From the NCBI RefSeq assembly GCF_003790525.1, contig NZ_CP033635.1: 64,000 bases of DNA, one strand, 5' to 3'. Position 1 is the stretch's first letter. Each line of letters starts with the position of its first letter. Below the pieces are notes generated by a model that was not told where the DNA came from, ran no database searches, and worked only from the letters and a program-made list of their open reading frames with translations. The translations under genes and the position numbers were made by a program. This stretch comes from Escherichia coli (GTDB taxonomy: Bacteria; Pseudomonadota; Gammaproteobacteria; Enterobacterales; Enterobacteriaceae). Below are positions 2,394 through 56,421 of this stretch, one piece after another.

Positions 2394-3389
2394 TTAATCA
2401 AAATATTGCGTCTGGATAAATTCACTGAGCTGTCGCAGGCCGGTGCGCGGTGAGAGCGTATTGTTTTTGACCGCTAAAAGCGTCTGGCGGTAATAGCGAT
2501 CGAAATCTTCATTCGCGAACAGGTGATTCAGTACTTCTTCTTCGGTTTGTTTACGCAGCCATTCCACCGATTGTTGTTGCCGCACTTGTTGTAATCGACC
2601 ACTGGCAGTTAGCGCGGTTTTGAAGTCGATGATGGCGTGCCAGATCTCATCGATTCCACGTTTTTCCAGTGCGCTACAAGTCAGAACCCGTGGCTGCCAT
2701 TCGTCGTATTTACGTCGCAGAATATGCAGGGCACTCTCGTACATATGCTGGGCAATGGCGACATTGGTATGGTTATCGCCATCGTCTTTGTTGATAACGA
2801 TCAGATCTGCCACTTCCATCAGCCCCTTTTTAATGCCCTGCAGATCATCGCCGCCACCGGCAATTTGCAACGAGATAAAACAGTCCACCATGCGGGCGAC
2901 TTCCGTTTCCGACTGTCCGACGCCAACCGTTTCGACAATCACTACGTCATAACCCGCCGCTTCGCATAACAGCATTAATTCCCGCGCTCGCTGACTGGCA
3001 CCGCCCAGATGGCCGGAGGAGGGTACCGGGCGAATAAACGCCGCCTCGGCACGCGCAAGGTCATTCATGCGGGTTTTATCCCCGAGAATGCTACCGCCAG
3101 TGACCGGGCTGCTGGGATCGACCGCAATAACCGCAACCTTTAATCCCTCACGAATCAACAACATGCCAAAGGCTTCAAGAAAGGTACTTTTCCCCGCGCC
3201 GGGTGTGCCGGTAACACCCAGTCGCAGGGCGTTACCACAGAACGGCATAATGGCATCAAGCAGTTGCGTACTTAGCGCCTGATGACGCGGGTGACGGCTT
3301 TCCACCAGCGTCATGGCCTGGGCGAGCGTGGCACGCTCACCCTGACGTAAGCGGCGAATACTTTCTGCCAGCGTGGCTTCATTAATCAT
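2394..3389 (-). CDS. argK: MeaB/ArgK-type GTPase, methylmalonyl-CoA mutase accessory protein
   Basis: 331-aa ORF with P-loop [11 protein letters not shown]; positioned between scpA and scpB. Confidence 0.9.
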
Positions 3390-6623: not shown

Positions 6624-7005
6624 TGCTGTTGTCTGCTCCTGGTAAATGCTTTTTCCTGCACTATGACACAATTTTGTGTCAGGTTGCATATACCGAAGCC
6701 GTCGGCGGGTAACATTTGTATCAATGGTTAAACGCGCAGCTTAAAAGATCAGGGATTTGCGCTATTGCATTTCGCTTAGCGACTTCGCGCCCTGGTTATG
6801 TTGAATGGCGTGGCGTTATTGCCTCTGTTCGCACCGTGGAGCGGCATACCCAGACCGTTGTATGCTTTATTTGCCGGGCGAAAGGGGATGCCCGCCATTG
6901 CGCGATATTTTATGGATGAGTTAACCACGCGGCTTGCCAACGGGGTCTGAATCGCTTTTTTTGTATATAATGCGTGTGAAATTTCATACCACAGGCGAAA
7001 CGATC

Positions 7006-17170: not shown

Positions 17171-17287
17171 CGGCTTTATTCCTCTTCTGCGGGAGAGGAT
17201 CAGGGTGAGGAAATTTACACCTCACCCTCACTCTCTTCGCAAGGAGAGAGGTTCACAATTCACTGCACGTTTCAGGAACCATCGCTC

Positions 17288-41089: not shown

Positions 41090-41111
41090 GAAACAGGCCG
41101 CCGAAGCGGCC
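41090..41111 (-). terminator. Terminator hairpin after xdhD
   Basis: ggccgccgaagcggcc palindrome 10 nt 3' of the xdhD stop, flanked by T-rich sequence on both strands. Confidence 0.4.
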
Positions 41112-41120
41112 ATTTATTAT

Positions 41121-43991
41121 TTATATTTTTTCCAGCGCGGTGAGTATTTTCTCCGGTGTGAAATGCCATTCGCGTAACCAGATGCCGCATGCATCGTGAA
41201 TTGCGATAGCAATCGCCGGAGCTGCGCCATTTACACCGATTTCCGAGATCGATTTCGCCCCGAACGGGCCGACTTTATCGTCGCTCGGCACCAGCACAGC
41301 GCGGAAATCACGCGGAATGTCACCAATTTTCGGTGCGCCGTAACTGCGTAAATCACGCGTTAACGGGTGACCTTCGGCGTCATAAATGATCTCTTCGCTC
41401 ATACTGTGGCCGATAGCTCGCAGAGTGGCACCGTAGATTTGTCCCAACGCTAACTCTGGATTGACCGGTGTACCGCAATCCAGCAAGGCGTAGAATTTAT
41501 CCAGGCGGATTTCACCCGTACGCGTGTTGACGGCAACTTCAGCAAAGTTTGCGCCATACGGGAAGGCGAAATCAGGCGTGATATAACTGCCAGTTCCCAC
41601 CAGTGAACCAAAGCCGGTGCCGGTTTCGCCTTTATGGGCTATCTCTCCGAAACTAACTTCGCCTTTCTTGCCGCGAACGACGCCCGGCGTTGCTAGTTGA
41701 ACATCTGCCACTGGCTCACCCAACATTTGCGCGCCGTGGAACAGGATTTTCTCCCGCAGATTTTCCGCTGCCAAACGCGCAGCGTTACCCGAGAAGCAAG
41801 TACCGGACGAGGCATATGCGCCTTTATCAAACAGTGCATGATCGGTATCACCAGAGATAACATGCACGTCCTGCGGTGGGCAGTGCAGCACTTCTGCTGC
41901 CAGTTTCGTCACCACAGTATCCAAACCAGTACCAATATCCGCACCGCCAGAATGAACGATAAAGGTACCGTCTGATTCCAGTTTGATCATGCAGTTAGCC
42001 TGATCGATATCCGGGATACCCGATTTCTGCATGATAATGGCGACGCCACGACCGATGTGCCAGTCACCGTTTTGTGGTTTTGGTGAAGACCATTGGATCA
42101 TCTCGCGACCCTGACGCAGGATCTCTTCCAGTGCGCAGCTGGCGGCGGAAGGAACGGAGGTCGGCGCTTTACCTTCACCGATTGCACCGAGAATTTTCAG
42201 CTCTTGCCCTTCGTGTACCCGGTTACGTTCGATAATTTCCAGTTGGTCGATCTGTAACTGTTCAGCCAGTTCCGCTAATGCCATGGTGATAGCGAAGTTA
42301 CCTTTCGGTGCGCCATAACCCTGATAAGCACCATTTGGGCAAATGTTGCTGTAGTAGGTGGTGACCTGGAAATCGACGTTATCGCACGGATATAACGGCA
42401 GCGACAGCGCCGGTCCGTTACACGGTACGGTGAGTGAGTGGTTGCCGTAAGGGCCAGTGTTGGCGCGGAAATCCATCTTCACTGCCGTCAGGCGACCATC
42501 TTTTTTCGCTCCCAGTTTGACGGTGACTTTCGCGACGTGACGAGAGGTGTTAGCAATAAACTCTTCTTCACGGGTGTAGCGGAACAGTACCGGACGCCCG
42601 GTCACGCAGGTTGCCCAGGCGCACACTTCTTCCAGCAGGATGTCCTGTTTGGAACCAAAACCGCCGCCAACTCGCTCTTTAATGACATGAACTTTATGTT
42701 GTTTCATGCCCACGAGGCGCGCGACCTGGCGGCGTAAGTGCCATGGTACCTGGGTGGAGGCGTGGATAACCAGACGATCGCCGTCCATACGGGTAAAGCA
42801 GATATGTGTTTCAGTCGGGCACTGCTGCGCCTGCGTTGAGTTATAGGTTCGCTCAATGATCACATCGGCATCGGCAAAGCCTTTGTCCATATCGCCAATA
42901 TGACCATGGATACTGGCAGCGATATTTTTGCGTGGGCGAGAACCGATCGGGAAGTTGATGATCATATGCTCGCCGCGCTGGGCTGCATGGCTGTTATCAT
43001 CTTCCAGAGTATCTGGCGCACCAGCAACATACACCACCGGTTCATCGTGCACCACAGGCGCATCTTCCGCCATTGCCTCGTCAATCGACATTACTGGCTT
43101 AAGCACCTCATATTCAACGTCGATGAGCTTCAATGCTTCGAGCGCAATGTCTTCACTTTCAGCGACGACCGCAGCAACACGATCGCCGACGTGACGCATT
43201 TTCTTGCCGAACATACGGCGGTCAAGCGGTGACGGTTCCGGTGCGCTCTGACCACCCGGGGTATAGTAGATATCTGGGCAATTCAGGTGAGTAATAACGT
43301 GAACGACGCCCGGTAAGGCTTCAGCTTTGCTGACATCCAGATGAGTAATCAGTGCGTGAGCGTGTGGGCTACGTAACATTTTAATGACGCAGGCGTCAGC
43401 CGTTACGCGGTCTTCAACATAGCAGGGTTTCGCCTGCACCATTTTCGCGGCATCAGTTTTAGGATAATGCTTGCCAATGACTTCAAGGTCGTCACGGAAA
43501 GTCGGAGCGATATCAATGGTGGCCTGCGGATTATTTTTACGTGCAACCGCCAGTTCAATGACCTGATAGTATTGCTGCCAGCCAGCATCGCGGCTAAACA
43601 GACCTGAGAGCGCGTCGTCGATCTCTTCGCGGGTAGGTGCGGCGATGCGATCGAGAAGATCGGTGATAATCAGAGCCGCAGCTGGATCGTTATAACCAGA
43701 CTGCACCACGCCAACATCAACCATGGCCTGTTGAACCAGACTTAACTCGTTCCATTTGCCCAGAGATTCTGCGGTACGAATATCTGCCTTCTCTAACTGT
43801 GCGGCAATAAGCAAGGACGCGTTAACGATATTACCGTTAAAGATAATTGCGTCAGAACCGGCAAACCCAAAACCATCATCACTGTTGCGTACAGAGTGCA
43901 TTCCCATGTTAAACAACAGCTTTTGCACGTTTTCGCCTGGATTAACGGTTAGCTCCTGAGGCGCGCCATTTAAAGTAAAGTGGATGATCAT
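41121..43991 (-). CDS. xdhD: Molybdopterin-dependent hydroxylase XdhD (fused 2Fe-2S and Mo-cofactor-binding subunits, xanthine dehydrogenase family)
   Basis: 956-aa ORF MIIHFTLNGAPQELTVNPGENVQKLLF. Confidence 0.88.
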   Translation of the reverse strand: MIIHFTLNGAPQELTVNPGENVQKLLFNMGMHSVRNSDDGFGFAGSDAIIFNGNIVNASLLIAAQLEKADIRTAESLGKWNELSLVQQAMVDVGVVQSGYNDPAAALIITDLLDRIAAPTREEIDDALSGLFSRDAGWQQYYQVIELAVARKNNPQATIDIAPTFRDDLEVIGKHYPKTDAAKMVQAKPCYVEDRVTADACVIKMLRSPHAHALITHLDVSKAEALPGVVHVITHLNCPDIYYTPGGQSAPEPSPLDRRMFGKKMRHVGDRVAAVVAESEDIALEALKLIDVEYEVLKPVMSIDEAMAEDAPVVHDEPVVYVAGAPDTLEDDNSHAAQRGEHMIINFPIGSRPRKNIAASIHGHIGDMDKGFADADVIIERTYNSTQAQQCPTETHICFTRMDGDRLVIHASTQVPWHLRRQVARLVGMKQHKVHVIKERVGGGFGSKQDILLEEVCAWATCVTGRPVLFRYTREEEFIANTSRHVAKVTVKLGAKKDGRLTAVKMDFRANTGPYGNHSLTVPCNGPALSLPLYPCDNVDFQVTTYYSNICPNGAYQGYGAPKGNFAITMALAELAEQLQIDQLEIIERNRVHEGQELKILGAIGEGKAPTSVPSAASCALEEILRQGREMIQWSSPKPQNGDWHIGRGVAIIMQKSGIPDIDQANCMIKLESDGTFIVHSGGADIGTGLDTVVTKLAAEVLHCPPQDVHVISGDTDHALFDKGAYASSGTCFSGNAARLAAENLREKILFHGAQMLGEPVADVQLATPGVVRGKKGEVSFGEIAHKGETGTGFGSLVGTGSYITPDFAFPYGANFAEVAVNTRTGEIRLDKFYALLDCGTPVNPELALGQIYGATLRAIGHSMSEEIIYDAEGHPLTRDLRSYGAPKIGDIPRDFRAVLVPSDDKVGPFGAKSISEIGVNGAAPAIAIAIHDACGIWLREWHFTPEKILTALEKI

Positions 43992-44767
43992 ACGGCTTCC
44001 TCCCCAGCCTGTTGGCAGTCGGCATACAGGTCGGCTACCAGAACTCCCGTGATATAGCGTTTATAGGCCACGCTGCCCCGCAAATCTTCCTGCGGGAAAA
44101 TGGCGTTGGCGACAGCCTGTTCAAGGGCATTGCCTTCCAGATTTTGTTTTTCGACATCGTGCAGACGCAGTGCTTTACTGGCGACGCCATCCAGCGCAAT
44201 TCGCATACCGTCGTGGTCTGTCATTGCAACGGCTGCCGTCACGACGGTTAAACCTGCCTGAGAACGGCTAATTTTGCGGGTCGCACAGGTGCGATACGGA
44301 TCTTTAATGATAATTTCGGTTAACAGGCGATCGCATGGGCAGGCCAGGTAGTCCTCGATTGACAGCGTTTCGCCGTTGCCAAAAACCAGTTCAGCATCCA
44401 GTGCCAGCAGGACGGGAAGCAGCACCGACTCTTCCTGCCGGGCGGCGATTTCACCACCAATGGTCGACTGATTACGAACATGGCGTGAGTAAACAAAACC
44501 GAGAGCTTCACGCAGTGCTGCAGGAATAAATCGTGCATCACGCAGTGACTGCAAGCGAGACATTGCGCCAATTCGTAGTGCACCGTTATCCCAGTCAATC
44601 CAGTCCAGCTCCAGATCCTGCAAGGAAATGGCAATCTTTTTATCGGTACGGGTTGGTGTAGCGTTGAGTTTGCTGCCCCCGGCGAACCAGACGGCTTCAT
44701 CCTGGTAGCGGCGCTTCAGTTCCAGCGCTTGTTCGACAGAGTCGGGTCTGAAAAATTGTTCAATCAT
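43988..44767 (-). CDS. ygfM: FAD-binding subunit of molybdenum hydroxylase (CO dehydrogenase flavoprotein-like)
   Basis: 259-aa ORF; 4-nt stop/start overlap with xdhD. Confidence 0.85.
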   Translation of the reverse strand: MIEQFFRPDSVEQALELKRRYQDEAVWFAGGSKLNATPTRTDKKIAISLQDLELDWIDWDNGALRIGAMSRLQSLRDARFIPAALREALGFVYSRHVRNQSTIGGEIAARQEESVLLPVLLALDAELVFGNGETLSIEDYLACPCDRLLTEIIIKDPYRTCATRKISRSQAGLTVVTAAVAMTDHDGMRIALDGVASKALRLHDVEKQNLEGNALEQAVANAIFPQEDLRGSVAYKRYITGVLVADLYADCQQAGEEAV

Positions 44768-44817
44768 CGTCTTTCCTTAATTTCCCCTCTTCTCTGAAAG
44801 AAGAGGGGAGCTGTTAT

Positions 44818-46146
44818 TTATGCCAGCGCATCCATCCGACGCCACATACTGGCAGCGGCTTTTCTGGCTTGCGCATAAATGGAATCGCAATCGAAGTTAA
44901 ACTGACGGTCTTCATAGACCATCACACCATTGACCATCACGCTGTGAACGCTGCCTGAGCCCATACCGAAAGCGATATGCCCGGCGATATTGTCTGCCAG
45001 CAGCGGCGTTGGCGAGTTGTAATCACAAATGGTTAAATCGGCTTTGTAACCGGCTTCCAGAAGGCCAAATTTCGCGCCAAAGTTGCGGCTCATCAGTTCG
45101 TTGCCGTTAGCCAGTGCTTTGGCAAAACTGTCAGGCCACAGCGGGCCACCCGCATCGCGATGTTTAAAGAAGGCAAATTTCATCTCTTCAAACATGTCCG
45201 AACCAATGCCGTCCGTTCCCAACGCCAGATTGCGGATGTCGCTAAGGTGATGGTTGTAGCCGACATGGTTGTTCATGTTTGAACGGGCGTTATGCACCAG
45301 GAACGCATCGCGCTGATTGAGTAGGGCGATGTCATCTTTCGACAAGTACAGCCCATGAGCGACCAGCGTTTTGCTGTCGATGAGATCGAATTGCGTCAGT
45401 CGTGCCAGTAGGTCTTTGCCGTACCAGTGGTGACTGTAGGAAACGTCGTAAAGGTCTTCCGCAGCGTGAATATGCAAACCACGACCTGTGGTTTTCACGG
45501 CTTCACGCAGCATCTCCAGACCGGCATCCGGCACGGTAAACGGCGCGTGAGCGCCGATATGTGCTTCCACCAGATACGGCTCGGTTGCTGCTTTCTTCGC
45601 CTCATCAATCTGACGGGCGAAGCGGATGTTTTCTTCTACACCTTCCTGCAACTCTTTGATGCCGTTGTTACGGTCAGTAGTTTCAAAACAGGTCATCGCG
45701 CGCAGGCCAACTTTTAAAAATGCGTTGCGCAATGTGGAGAGCGACCCGTCGATATACGCCGGAGAGGCATGGTGATCGATAACCGATGTACATCCGCTCT
45801 TAATCGCTTCCAGGGAACAAATCAGTCCGCTGTAATAGAGCGACTCTTCATCAAGGGCGCGATCGAGCCGCCACCAGAGATTTTTCAGCGTTGAGATGAA
45901 ATCCGGGCAGGGGGCGATATTTGCCATAATTCCGCGGGAAAGCCCCGAGTAAAAATGGTTGTGCGAGCAGACAATCCCAGGCATCACAATCCGGCCATGC
46001 ATCTCTTTGTAGCTGGCATCGGGGTAGCGTTGCGTCAGGGCATCGCCGATAGCGACAATCACATCATTTTCGATGGCGATATCAACGCCTTCCTGCACTT
46101 TCGCCGGGTGTAACTGCACTGCGGTGACATTCTTCAGAATCAACAT
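44818..46146 (-). CDS. ssnA: Amidohydrolase-family protein SsnA (chlorohydrolase/aminohydrolase-like)
   Basis: ORF track 464 aa; trimmed to MLILKNVTAVQLHPAKVQEG (442 aa). Confidence 0.85.
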   Translation of the reverse strand: MLILKNVTAVQLHPAKVQEGVDIAIENDVIVAIGDALTQRYPDASYKEMHGRIVMPGIVCSHNHFYSGLSRGIMANIAPCPDFISTLKNLWWRLDRALDEESLYYSGLICSLEAIKSGCTSVIDHHASPAYIDGSLSTLRNAFLKVGLRAMTCFETTDRNNGIKELQEGVEENIRFARQIDEAKKAATEPYLVEAHIGAHAPFTVPDAGLEMLREAVKTTGRGLHIHAAEDLYDVSYSHHWYGKDLLARLTQFDLIDSKTLVAHGLYLSKDDIALLNQRDAFLVHNARSNMNNHVGYNHHLSDIRNLALGTDGIGSDMFEEMKFAFFKHRDAGGPLWPDSFAKALANGNELMSRNFGAKFGLLEAGYKADLTICDYNSPTPLLADNIAGHIAFGMGSGSVHSVMVNGVMVYEDRQFNFDCDSIYAQARKAAASMWRRMDALA

Positions 46147-46148
46147 GA

Positions 46149-49100
46149 TTACACCTCCACGCGGCCCAGCAGATAATGATGATGCTGGTGGACATGGCTG
46201 ATGATACGGCACATATCGTTCAGCTCCGGTGGTACGTTGTTGAACTGACCTTCGCTGTCGATGTTTAACACCCAGCTTTGGTTATTCAGACGTACGCGTA
46301 CCCGGCAATCTTCCACAAGGAAGCCTGGGTTGCTGCTGTTATCAAAGTCTTGCGACAGGCTGAAGACGGTGATTTTGTCTTTGTACGGTTTACCGTTCCA
46401 CGGGCAGAATTGGGCGCAGTTGCCGCATTCGTTGCAGTAGGCATCGAGATGCAGCGTCTGGAAACGGTTCTGGAAGCCAGGAACCGCAATGGAGACGTTG
46501 GCGCGGTTCGGGCAGACATCCACACACTTGCTGCAAACGTAGTTACATTCAAGGCAGCGTGCGGCTTCCTGGGCGACAAACGCGTCACGATCGTCACTGT
46601 TCACCAGAGTGATAGAGATATCGCCTTTACGTTGATAGATTTCCGCCGGATTGACGTTGTTCCAGTATTTATCGTTCTGGTGGGAACGGATATTTTCCCG
46701 ACTCAGGATTGCATCGGTCGCCCGACGCGCGGTTCCGACAGCAGCGACAATGGAGGATGGTCCGCGCTGTACGTCGCCGATCATAAAGACGTCAGTCAGA
46801 CGCGTTTCGCCATTATGGTCGACGTCTGGCCAGCCGTTTTTGTCCAGCGGCACGCCCATTGCATTCAGGGCTTCAGTATCCTGCTGTTCACCAATGGCGG
46901 TGATCAGGCTGTCTACATGCAGCGTTACTGTTTCGTTGGTTTCAACCGGACGGCGACGACCTTTCTCATCAGGTTCGCCAAGCGACATAACGCGCAAGGT
47001 TAAGGTGCCATCAGCATCGAAACGTTCCGGATTATTCAGAAAACGGAACTCCACGCCGTCGTGCAACGCTTCTTCATACTCTTCGCGCCATGCTGGCATC
47101 TCTTGCAGTGAACGACGGTAAACGACCGTTGCTTTTTCTACGCCTGGAACGCGTAACGCCGCACGAGCGCAGTCCATTGCGGTGTTACCCGCCCCGACAA
47201 CGACCACATGTTTGCCCAGCTTGAGCGCGGTGCCCTTGTTGTATTCACGCAGGAAGGGGAGTGATTTCCAGACATTTTGGTTGTCGCCCGCCAGTTTCAC
47301 ACCGCTATTTTTATCGGTACCGGTGGCAATCAGAACATAGTGGAAGCCCTGATTTTTTAACTGTTCGACGGTCAGATCCGGTGAGCAGCCATACTCAAAT
47401 TTCACGCCGTGAGCGGCAACAAAATCGATATCGTGCTGAATTAACTCTGCAGGAATACGGAACTGAGGAATGATATTTTTCACCACGCCGCCCGCATTGG
47501 CTTCGCGTTCAAACAGCGTAACCGGATGGCCCGCTCTGGCAAGGAAGTAACCTGCTGCCAGACCCGCCGGACCTGCACCAATCACGGCAACCGGATGGCG
47601 TGAACCAGAACCGGCTGGTTTGTGCCAGCGTTGCTTATATTCATCCCAACCTTTTTCCAGCGCGACTTTTTTCAGTTCGCGGATATTCAGCGCACTGTCG
47701 TAATCCAGGCGAGTACAGTTGTATTGGCACTGGTGATCGCAAATATGACCGGTAATGGCGGGCAGGGCGTTTCGTTGATAGATGAGTTCCAGCGCGTCGG
47801 CATAGCGGTGTTCGCCAAGCAGACGGATGTATTCCGGAATATCTTGCTTGATAGCGCAGGCAGTAACACAGGGGGCAACGTAGCAATCGGTCAGCGGCAG
47901 GTCTTCAGCCACTTCAATACGCTCTTCTGGCTTCCAGTGTTTCTGGGTGTATTCCATGGTTAACGCATCTGCTGCCAGTCTGTTCAGTCGTTCGACGTCA
48001 ACATGGTCAAGTCCCCAGGCGTTGGAGCCTTCCAGCTCGCGCATGCAGGCACTTAAGCGCAGATAGCCGCCAGGTTTCAGCAGGTCGGTTGCCATAGTAA
48101 TAGGGCGAATACCAGTATCAAAAATATCGCGGATAGTCAGCTGACTGGCACCACCGGAATAAGAAATGGGCAGTTTGCCGTCAAAGGCGCGAGAGAGAAC
48201 TGCTGCAACGTTGATGGAGAGCGGGAACAGCGCACGGCCTGACATATACATCTCTTCACCAGGCAGTGCGCCTTTATTGTTGATGGTGCCGAGAGTGTTA
48301 GTCAGTTTTACGCCAAAGCCGAGTGATTTTTCTTTTGCCAGTGCCATCAGGCGTTCCAGCATTTCCAGCGCTTGCGTCAGCTTGAGGTCGTGATCAAATG
48401 ACTCTTCTTTTAAGCCTATGTAACCGAAACCGCAGACATCAAGGATCTCACGAACACGCGCGTACCCCAGTAAGGTCGGGTTGAGTTTCACAAAGGTATT
48501 GAGCCCTTTTTCTTCCAGCATGTAGCGGCAAATGGCTTCGATTTCATGCGGAGGACAGCCGTGCATGGTGGAGAGGGTAACACCTTGTACCATGCTGGTG
48601 GGGATGCGAGCGGGTAAGGCTTGCAAGCTTTCGCGTTTTTCCTGTAAGCCGTGGCGGGCTAAAAATGCCTCATCCTGGAGTAGCTTATTAAGTGCATCGC
48701 GGTATTGAGCGAATTTCGGATGGTCAGATGCGTCCATCATATTGTCGATGAACTGCTGCATCGGCGGTTGCTTAATACCTTCGAGGTTGTAACCGACGCT
48801 CATATTAAAGATGAACGATTTACCGGAATCAGAAGGCTGGAACATCGCTTCGAGAAGGTGCAGGGCAAACCAGGCTTTGAGGTATTCATCCCAGGCTTTA
48901 AGCAGGGTAAATTCGGTAGACCATTCGGTGTTAAAGCACTCGTCTTCGGCATCGATACAGGGCTTTTCCAGCTCCAGGCGGTCAAGAATTTGGACGGTTT
49001 TTAGTTCGATGAAGCGTCCGCCAGTCAGCCAGGAAGTGACAATATTTTGCGCGAGCTGCGTGTGCGGGCCAGCGGCAGGGCCGACGGGAGTGGCACAGGT

Positions 49101-49247
49101 TTCACCGAAGACGCTAACAGTTTTACCTTTTACAGGTGAGTAAAACTGTTGCTCGGGAATACCAAAGATTGAGCGTTGTTGTTGGTATTCATCAAATATG
49201 CGCGTCAAAAGTTCCTCAAACGGAATGGGACGCATAATATCCCCCAT
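46149..49247 (-). CDS. ygfK: Large Fe-S/FAD oxidoreductase YgfK (putative selenate reductase component)
   Basis: 1032-aa ORF MGDIMRPIPFEELLTRIFDEYQQ with SD ggagag; Cys clusters and GAGPAGL NAD/FAD fold. Confidence 0.88.
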   Translation of the reverse strand: MGDIMRPIPFEELLTRIFDEYQQQRSIFGIPEQQFYSPVKGKTVSVFGETCATPVGPAAGPHTQLAQNIVTSWLTGGRFIELKTVQILDRLELEKPCIDAEDECFNTEWSTEFTLLKAWDEYLKAWFALHLLEAMFQPSDSGKSFIFNMSVGYNLEGIKQPPMQQFIDNMMDASDHPKFAQYRDALNKLLQDEAFLARHGLQEKRESLQALPARIPTSMVQGVTLSTMHGCPPHEIEAICRYMLEEKGLNTFVKLNPTLLGYARVREILDVCGFGYIGLKEESFDHDLKLTQALEMLERLMALAKEKSLGFGVKLTNTLGTINNKGALPGEEMYMSGRALFPLSINVAAVLSRAFDGKLPISYSGGASQLTIRDIFDTGIRPITMATDLLKPGGYLRLSACMRELEGSNAWGLDHVDVERLNRLAADALTMEYTQKHWKPEERIEVAEDLPLTDCYVAPCVTACAIKQDIPEYIRLLGEHRYADALELIYQRNALPAITGHICDHQCQYNCTRLDYDSALNIRELKKVALEKGWDEYKQRWHKPAGSGSRHPVAVIGAGPAGLAAGYFLARAGHPVTLFEREANAGGVVKNIIPQFRIPAELIQHDIDFVAAHGVKFEYGCSPDLTVEQLKNQGFHYVLIATGTDKNSGVKLAGDNQNVWKSLPFLREYNKGTALKLGKHVVVVGAGNTAMDCARAALRVPGVEKATVVYRRSLQEMPAWREEYEEALHDGVEFRFLNNPERFDADGTLTLRVMSLGEPDEKGRRRPVETNETVTLHVDSLITAIGEQQDTEALNAMGVPLDKNGWPDVDHNGETRLTDVFMIGDVQRGPSSIVAAVGTARRATDAILSRENIRSHQNDKYWNNVNPAEIYQRKGDISITLVNSDDRDAFVAQEAARCLECNYVCSKCVDVCPNRANVSIAVPGFQNRFQTLHLDAYCNECGNCAQFCPWNGKPYKDKITVFSLSQDFDNSSNPGFLVEDCRVRVRLNNQSWVLNIDSEGQFNNVPPELNDMCRIISHVHQHHHYLLGRVEV

Positions 49248-55110: not shown

Positions 55111-55135
55111 AAAAACCCTCCGGCGAACCGGAGGG
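55111..55135 (-). terminator. Intra-operon Rho-independent terminator/attenuator between ygeY and hyuA
   Basis: Minus strand reads ccctccgg-ttcg-ccggaggg followed by ttttt, then the hyuA SD and ATG. Confidence 0.5.
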
Positions 55136-56364: not shown

Positions 56365-56421
56365 TATTTTTCTCCAGATTTTTTACTCCCCGTTTTGCAG
56401 GGAGCAGTTCCAATAGGGTGA

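Follow-up and report, generated by a model that had tools for sequence, protein, structure and literature searches.

A stem-loop between ssnA and ygfM in the Escherichia coli urate operon, selected for base pairing and possibly a 3' protective element

The hairpin described here, which lies between ssnA and ygfM of Escherichia coli, belongs to the well-known class of intercistronic hairpins. A 3' exonuclease barrier has been modelled for malE-malF and for many E. coli operons (Dar and Sorek, 2018, PMC5927463), papBA and several other E. coli operons provide documented cases of 5' protection by a stem-loop (PMC5927463), and an intercistronic terminator between mccA and mccB is reported to set the upstream:downstream ratio (PMC4231749). 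The ssnA-ygfM hairpin was previously unannotated at its site (RefSeq features, Rfam, and the literature were searched), and its structure, strand, and position, as well as the selection acting on it, were established in this analysis. It is a cis-acting stem-loop in the ygfK-ssnA-ygfM-xdhD mRNA that is kept by selection for pairing, and 3' protection of the malE-malF type is its likeliest role, which I put forward tentatively.

The window, i.e. the whole 64,000-nt stretch of E. coli DNA that was analysed, carries the operon on its minus strand with the following features, given in the direction of transcription and with the evidence in brackets.

46149-49247, minus strand: ygfK.
44818-46146, minus strand: ssnA, amidohydrolase of the urate pathway, with its stop codon TAA at 44820-44818 (ORF list, RefSeq annotation).
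44810-44817, minus strand: spacer AUAACAGC, 8 nt, single-stranded, from the ssnA stop to the stem (sequence, fold).
44798-44809, minus strand: 5' arm of the hairpin, UCCCCUCUUCUU, all pyrimidine (fold, perfect repeat, pair counts).
44795-44797, minus strand: hairpin loop UCA, 3 nt (fold, allele comparison).
44783-44794, minus strand: 3' arm of the hairpin, GAGAAGAGGGGA, all purine, containing an SD-like GAGG (fold, pair counts).
44768-44782, minus strand: ygfM leader AAUUAAGGAAAGACG, unpaired, with the SD AAGGA (sequence, folds).
43988-44767, minus strand: ygfM, FAD subunit of the XdhD-YgfM urate reductase, with its ATG at 44767-44765.
41121-43991, minus strand: xdhD.

Gene names follow the RefSeq annotation of ATCC 25922 and AR_0013, which are 100% identical to the window over the 301 nt tested, and the annotated ssnA length of 1329 nt was taken from K-12. 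With a ygfK-ssnA gap of 2 nt, a ygfM/xdhD overlap of 4 nt, and an ssnA-ygfM gap of 50 nt, the operon has a single real gap, and the hairpin sits there, separating the YgfK/SsnA module from the YgfM/XdhD module. The short gap and the overlap imply translational coupling within each enzyme module, the hairpin marking the one boundary that divides the two. The same YgeV iModulon includes all four genes, and a scan of the window found no promoter-like site in the ssnA-ygfM gap; taken with the 50-nt length of that gap, this suggests that ygfK, ssnA, ygfM, and xdhD are co-transcribed. Downstream of xdhD, at 41096-41111 of the window (minus strand), GGCCGCTTCGGCGGCC is followed by a T-rich tail and constitutes the operon terminator. 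The published primary 3' end at K-12 position 3024218, just beyond the xdhD stop at 3024186, is consistent with this GGCCGCTTCGGCGGCC terminator.

The four genes encode steps one to three of the anaerobic route by which gut bacteria degrade urate (the 2,8-dioxopurine pathway), recently solved and described in PMC12507026 and bioRxiv 10.1101/2025.04.24.650524: XdhD-YgfM converts urate to 2,8-dioxopurine, and YgfK and SsnA then reduce and open the ring (both sources). When the pathway was reconstituted in vitro, YgfK was 200-fold above XdhAC (bioRxiv 10.1101/2025.04.24.650524), which hints, if weakly, at a need for more of the upstream module.

The preliminary description had reported a perfect 9-bp hairpin, cccctcttc-tctgaaa-gaagagggg, between the ssnA stop and the ygfM SD. 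This sequence is present at 44784-44808 (plus strand), within the 50-nt gap at 44768-44817, and its placement was right, with the SD AAGGA of ygfM at 44778-44774 (minus strand), 6 nt before the start codon. The stem, however, had been understated: the perfect Watson-Crick inverted repeat in the DNA is 11 bp long (44783-44809), and on the mRNA (minus) strand the fold is UCCCCUCUUCUU / UCA / GAGAAGAGGGGA, with a 12-bp stem, a 3-nt loop, and a closing U.G pair. The hairpin has a dG of -20.2 kcal/mol and a z-score of -4.14, was matched by equally good folds in 0/200 shuffles, and is unchanged within a 151-nt context. Six of the 12 pairs are G-C, as befits the G+C-rich stem-loop of an intrinsic terminator; the tail 3' of the stem on the sense strand is AAUUAAGG, with only 2 U in 8 nt, and the earlier statement that a U-tract is missing was correct for the mRNA strand. 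The exact hairpin pattern was expected 0.00 times in shuffles of the window and has a single match there even with two mismatches allowed. Perfect hairpins of at least 9 bp numbered 9 in the window versus 1.9 +/- 1.6 in shuffles, and the ssnA-ygfM hairpin is one of the two longest. Across lineages, the main stem starts ~4-10 nt past the stop codon and ends ~13-22 nt ahead of the ATG, while the true ygfM SD is unpaired in every fold; the hairpin occupies the space that separates a terminating ribosome from an initiating one.

Two main alleles of the gap are found in E. coli. The B2-type allele, which is that of the window, was present exactly in 1198/5426 complete genomes, and the K-12-type allele in 3056/5426, with 1-3 differences in ~900 more; in total, 5,177 E. 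coli genomes carry the gap. The two differ at 11 of the 50 gap positions (22%), and both fold to -20.2 kcal/mol. The flanking genes differ between the same types at 34/1329 positions in ssnA and 17/780 in ygfM (2-2.5%). As an observation on the locus, the gap is ~10x more divergent between E. coli phylogroups than its flanking genes.

Changes within the stem conserve its pairing. At the apex, U-A is replaced by C-G and U.G by C-G, one base position carries C-G, G.U, or A-U, and the loop differs among alleles (GCA, GUA, UCC). In the alignment of Escherichia sequences, 93.7% of cells pair, versus at most 75% when the partners are slid, and three pairs have double-sided changes. The stem is also kept in 10/10 further E. 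coli genomes, six with the main alleles and four with minor ones, one of which has a C -> U change that gives a U.G pair.

Several peculiarities were seen at the junction in individual strains or alleles. The gap of K-12-type alleles is exactly covered by an ORF of 17 codons (MTDALFPQGRGLNKERR*; K-12 3020490-3020543, equivalent to 44764-44817 of the window), with an ATG directly adjoining the ssnA stop (TAAATG) and a TGA that shares bases with the ygfM start (ATGA). This ORF is probably incidental, judging from the sequences: the B2 allele of the window has ATA in place of ATG, and the ORF is absent in other genera. In the E. coli ST69 contig NZ_CP102488.1 (1-1500 of the locus), the end of a Mu-like prophage with a gene for a Mor family activator is inserted in the 3' part of ssnA; of ssnA, only the final ~50 nt are left at that insertion end, together with the hairpin and ygfM. 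In some E. coli genomes, a 385-aa gene call has an SsnA-type amidohydrolase domain fused to the C-terminal 54% of YgfM, which implies a deletion or frameshift variant across the junction. Finally, the allele of 'Citrobacter sp. MGH106' is almost that of B2 (4/50 positions of the intergenic region differ) and lies next to a YgfM of 93% identity, which suggests transfer or misclassification.

For a comparison across genera, ygfM upstream regions were gathered from 20 species genomes and 11 further contigs. A significantly stable hairpin was found in the ssnA-ygfM gap of 21/23 lineages with ssnA upstream of ygfM, with gap lengths of 42-72 nt and hairpin z-scores of -1.9 to -5.1, mostly below -2.5. 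A stable hairpin is the rule for all free-living lineages with this gene order. The exceptions were the endosymbiont Arsenophonus, which has no hairpin, Klebsiella indica, where it is weak, and Citrobacter MGH106, where it has one C.A mismatch. The arms at the orthologous position were as follows.

Citrobacter R56 and Pseudocitrobacter: CCCUCUCC / GGAGAGGG.
Atlantibacter: CGCCUCCCG / CGGGAGGCG.
Trabulsiella: CCUCCCCGC / GCGGGGAGG.
Pluralibacter: UUUCUCCCCC / GGGGGAGAAA.
Serratia, Morganella, Edwardsiella, Hafnia, and Buttiauxella: unrelated GC-rich stems.

Within the clade of Escherichia, Citrobacter, Atlantibacter, Trabulsiella, and Pluralibacter, the 3' arm always contains GGAG/GAGG and the 5' arm CCUC/CUCC. 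Serratia, Morganella, Buttiauxella, and Hafnia have no SD-like motif in their 3' arm. Most genera have an A-rich or mixed tail after the stem without a U-run, and U-rich tails occur in Edwardsiella (UUUU) and Hafnia (UUUGUCCUUCU).

Plain MAFFT/RNAalifold alignment across genera misregisters the low-complexity CU/GA arms and yields a meaningless consensus, which is why the Escherichia-only alignment, a covariance model, and my own counts were used instead. The covariance model was built from the Escherichia alignment and finds the orthologous site in other genera. In the resulting alignment of 17 orthologous rows, 92.6% of 190 cells pair and 12/12 pairs have double-sided changes, with the caveat that these rows were fitted to the model; the controls gave 71% for shuffles (maximum 79%) and at most 68% for slid partners. 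Counting pairs over 19 hairpins (197 stem cells) gave 187 Watson-Crick pairs, 9 G.U, and 1 C.A. A G.U pair on the sense strand would be an A.C on the antisense strand, and the excess of G.U over C.A (9 versus 1) therefore argues that the structure is selected as sense-strand RNA. Going by these sequence comparisons, selection acts on base pairing rather than on the sequence itself.

Three further observations came from the genomes searched. The 7.7-kb contig NZ_JAUFQN010000014.1, labelled Flavobacterium paronense, has an intergenic region identical to K-12, and its ssnA 3' end, intergenic region, and ygfM start (152 nt read) match the K-12 type, with a best-segment tblastn identity of only 56% for YgfM; the match may be contamination of that assembly. 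In Trabulsiella odontotermitis strain 01 (~2985-3005 of the locus), a deletion fuses the 3' arm of the hairpin to approximately codon 5 of ygfM and so removes the ygfM SD and start codon, while another T. odontotermitis strain is intact. In K. indica (6679-6703 of the locus), a hairpin like that of Citrobacter R56, CCCTCTCC-TCCG-GGAGAGGG, lies just past xdhD and precedes a GCGGGC-TTTTTT stretch.

Lineages that have lost the upstream genes were particularly informative. In three Kluyvera species and K. aerogenes, xdhABC-like genes are followed by a 360-400-nt gap and then ygfM-xdhD, and a remnant of the ssnA 3' end in the alignment indicates that ygfK-ssnA was deleted there. The ygfM SD is intact in these genomes, and what is left of the hairpin has 5-7 bp, loops of 11-13 nt, and -5 to -12.5 kcal/mol, compared with -15.6 to -19.7 kcal/mol for hairpins at intact junctions. 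This decay after loss of ygfK-ssnA implies that the hairpin is maintained only while a cistron lies upstream, which argues against a role in ygfM translation alone.

Other gaps between genes of the window contain hairpins as well. Within the same urate cluster, the ygeY-hyuA gap (55116-55135, minus strand) has CCCUCCGG-UUCG-CCGGAGGG at -16.6 kcal/mol; UUUUU comes next, with the hyuA SD GGAG immediately behind it, and the arrangement resembles a partial, intra-operonic intrinsic terminator. The ygeX-ygeY gap (56384-56406, minus strand) has a CU/GA-type hairpin, (UG)CUCCCUG-CAAAA-CGGGGAG(UA), at -13.1 kcal/mol, with an A-run between it and the ygeY SD. In the glycine-cleavage operon, the gcvH-gcvP gap (17180-17250, plus strand) holds three tandem hairpins within 70 nt, TCCTCTTC-TGCG-GGAGAGGA, AGGGTGAGG-N9-CCTCACCCT, and CTCTCTTC-GCAA-GGAGAGAG, and this region is present in 5425/5426 E. 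coli genomes.

The preliminary description had read the ssnA-ygfM hairpin as an mRNA stability or processing element. Its assignment to the RNA level is upheld by the compensatory changes, by the restriction of wobbles to the sense strand, and by the conserved position across Enterobacterales; a function in stability or processing is the most plausible one and agrees with the malE-malF and papBA models (PMC5927463), and here I infer an exonuclease barrier with an effect on stoichiometry. Following an endonuclease cut, or a stop of RNA polymerase, downstream of the hairpin, 3'-to-5' exonucleases (PNPase, RNase II) would degrade the message as far as the hairpin and halt there. As a result, ygfK-ssnA mRNA would last longer than ygfM-xdhD mRNA, and a single promoter could yield different amounts of the two enzyme modules. 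In a few lineages the U-tailed version probably doubles as a leaky terminator.

The 3' barrier is favoured on several grounds. The stem begins 8 nt past the ssnA stop and is thus a stable structure directly 3' of a cistron in what is probably a polycistronic transcript, and the structure is conserved in related species, as for elements of the malE-malF type. The U-rich tails in Edwardsiella, Hafnia, and the ygeY-hyuA gap point the same way, since 3'-end definition is the common denominator, and so does the decay of the element once the upstream cistron is gone. The large excess of YgfK over XdhAC in the reconstitution adds a weak hint on stoichiometry. Published transcript maps list no 3' end at the hairpin, either under the operon's gene names in the Term-seq and SMRT-Cappable-seq supplements or among the TRS entries listed; the only 3' ends of the operon among the entries listed are one internal to xdhD (3022649) and that of the xdhD terminator (3024218). 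The operon is also absent from the differential-decay operons of PMC5927463. It was nearly silent under the conditions used in all of these studies, and the published data therefore carry no information for or against a barrier. Counting against the barrier, no RNase E-type motif recurs next to the hairpin among the lineages compared, AA|AUU 3' of the stem being confined to the window allele.

An alternative is that the hairpin acts as a leaky attenuator or pause site, stopping or pausing a fraction of RNA polymerases past ssnA and thereby lowering the transcription of ygfM-xdhD relative to ygfK-ssnA. I consider this unlikely. It would draw on the GC-containing 12-bp stem directly past the stop codon, the U-tails of the Edwardsiella, Hafnia, and neighbouring ygeY-hyuA hairpins, and the mccA-mccB precedent, but the E. 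coli tail is poor in U, the sense strand was not called by the terminator scan, tails in most genera are A-rich or mixed, and Term-seq shows no 3' end at the site, albeit with the operon nearly silent. A canonical intrinsic terminator was rejected, as the site has no U-tract, lies inside a co-regulated operon, and coincides with no 3' end among the published map entries listed (with the operon nearly silent); on these same grounds the early judgement that the hairpin is something other than a terminator stands. The terminator scan flagged the site on the antisense (plus) strand only, owing to CTGTTATTTA. An antisense terminator was rejected too: the T-rich tail is no more than the stop-codon region read on the opposite strand, it does not occur in other genera, and no antisense 3' end at the hairpin is listed in E. 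coli Term-seq data.

A translational role, in which the hairpin insulates the ygfM ribosome-binding site or gates reinitiation, seems comparably unlikely. In the reinitiation variant, the terminating ssnA ribosome would abut or open the CU-rich arm and free the SD-like GA-rich arm as a landing pad. The geometry is suggestive: the start of the stem, ~4-10 nt past the stop, corresponds to the leading edge of a terminating ribosome, and its end, ~13-22 nt before the ATG, to the 5' edge of an initiating 30S subunit, so that the latter would also fit a role in translation. The constancy of GGAG/GAGG and CCUC/CUCC in the Escherichia-Citrobacter-Atlantibacter-Trabulsiella-Pluralibacter clade and the unpaired state of the true SD speak for it as well. 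That SD being free already, however, opening of the stem is unneeded for initiation; the SD-like motif is missing from the 3' arm in the four genera named above, and the hairpin has decayed in Kluyvera and K. aerogenes with the ygfM SD still in place.

Protection of the downstream segment, as at papBA, would require that RNase E cuts the upstream spacer and that the stem then caps and stabilises the ygfM-xdhD mRNA. A stable stem a few nt past an AU-containing single-stranded spacer and just ahead of the ygfM RBS is compatible with this, as is the documented occurrence of the mechanism. It is nonetheless distinctly improbable here, because the spacer AUAACAGC has no RN|WUU site (motif as defined in PMC5927463), the spacers of other genera are C/G-rich (CCCACG, AACCUGC, CCCUGUC), and a 3'-end role accords better with the U-tails of some lineages.

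It is quite doubtful that CU-rich/GA-rich hairpins between a stop codon and the true SD of the next gene represent a distinct class of translational relay, for which ssnA-ygfM, ygeY-hyuA, ygeX-ygeY, and gcvH-gcvP were the candidates in the window. In such a relay, the terminating ribosome would pry open the pyrimidine arm (an anti-SD-like 5' arm), and the exposed SD-like purine arm would capture the ribosome and pass it to the downstream start; if true, downstream translation would depend on upstream translation. Hairpins with a pyrimidine 5' arm and those with a purine 5' arm numbered 1 versus 2 in the window under strict pairing, numbers too small to be informative, and for a perfect palindrome the pyrimidine/purine asymmetry of the arms reads identically on both strands.

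That the hairpin has no current function, being either a neutral palindrome or a remnant of the terminator that ended ygfK-ssnA when this was a unit of its own, is very improbable. The occurrence of ygfM-xdhD without ssnA in Kluyvera, K. aerogenes, Photobacterium, and Propionivibrio and the absence of a transcript end at the site in published maps (with the operon nearly silent) are in keeping with it, but neutral sequence would not be expected to keep ~-20 kcal/mol through 22% divergence or to show double-sided changes at all 12 pairs, and decay where the context is lost and in the endosymbiont Arsenophonus is the behaviour of a selected element. A DNA-level site, i.e. a palindromic operator for a regulator or a cruciform, is scarcely credible in spite of the perfect 11-bp inverted repeat, given that the arms keep their complementarity but differ in sequence from genus to genus, that the tolerance of wobbles (9:1) is limited to the sense strand, that the arms extend right to the 3-nt loop, and that the position is intra-operonic with no promoter-like site nearby.

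Other element classes were also considered. A covariance-model scan against Rfam (E <= 10) gave no match overlapping the hairpin, and the sole Rfam match touching the gap was a sub-threshold snoRNA model at 44714-44774. In K-12 (NC_000913.3), no annotated feature or repeat lies in the gap. Recoding or readthrough and a bacterial SECIS element were rejected, as ssnA ends in TAA here but in any of TAG, TAA, or TGA in other lineages; for recoding or readthrough, moreover, the 42-72-nt gap lengths keep no frame. A sigma-54 promoter was rejected as well: CTGGCAT-N-CAGC at the end of ssnA has GG-N11-GC rather than GG-N10-GC, and it is lost in K-12.

The position of the hairpin gives it some practical relevance. 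The urate pathway is now being engineered into probiotics against hyperuricaemia, and a selected RNA element at the module junction probably sets the relative expression of both enzyme modules; when the cluster is refactored or over-expressed, the hairpin should be kept or deliberately replaced. It is otherwise an ordinary kind of element, but also a clean natural case of compensatory evolution visible inside one species.

Set against known systems, the hairpin shares with REP and BIME elements that it is a short intergenic palindrome in an E. coli operon, yet it is single-copy and does not have the REP consensus. Membership of that family was rejected on these grounds and because the site is not annotated as a repeat in NC_000913.3; the two 'places' found per genome are one palindromic locus read on both strands (5426 genomes). 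As in intrinsic or partial intra-operon terminators such as that reported for mccA-mccB (PMC4231749), a stem-loop stands a few nt past a stop codon, and the orthologous positions in Edwardsiella and Hafnia and the ygeY-hyuA neighbour resemble true weak terminators; the E. coli hairpin differs in its tail, AAUUAAGG, which is not a U-tract, and in the genes of the same regulon downstream. It resembles the 5' stem-loop of papB-papA in being an intercistronic hairpin just upstream of the ribosome-binding site of the downstream gene, whereas the ssnA-ygfM upstream spacer does not contain the RNase E consensus and some orthologous hairpins are U-tailed. From the malE-malF element, which consists of REP repeats, the single-copy ssnA-ygfM hairpin differs in being unrelated in sequence, and its intergenic location sets it apart from most structures of PMC5927463, which are found within the coding region downstream. 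What it has in common with malE-malF and the structures of PMC5927463 is a stable hairpin directly 3' of a cistron in a polycistronic mRNA, free of a terminator U-tract, conserved among enterobacteria, and placed at the boundary of segments that are possibly needed in different amounts.
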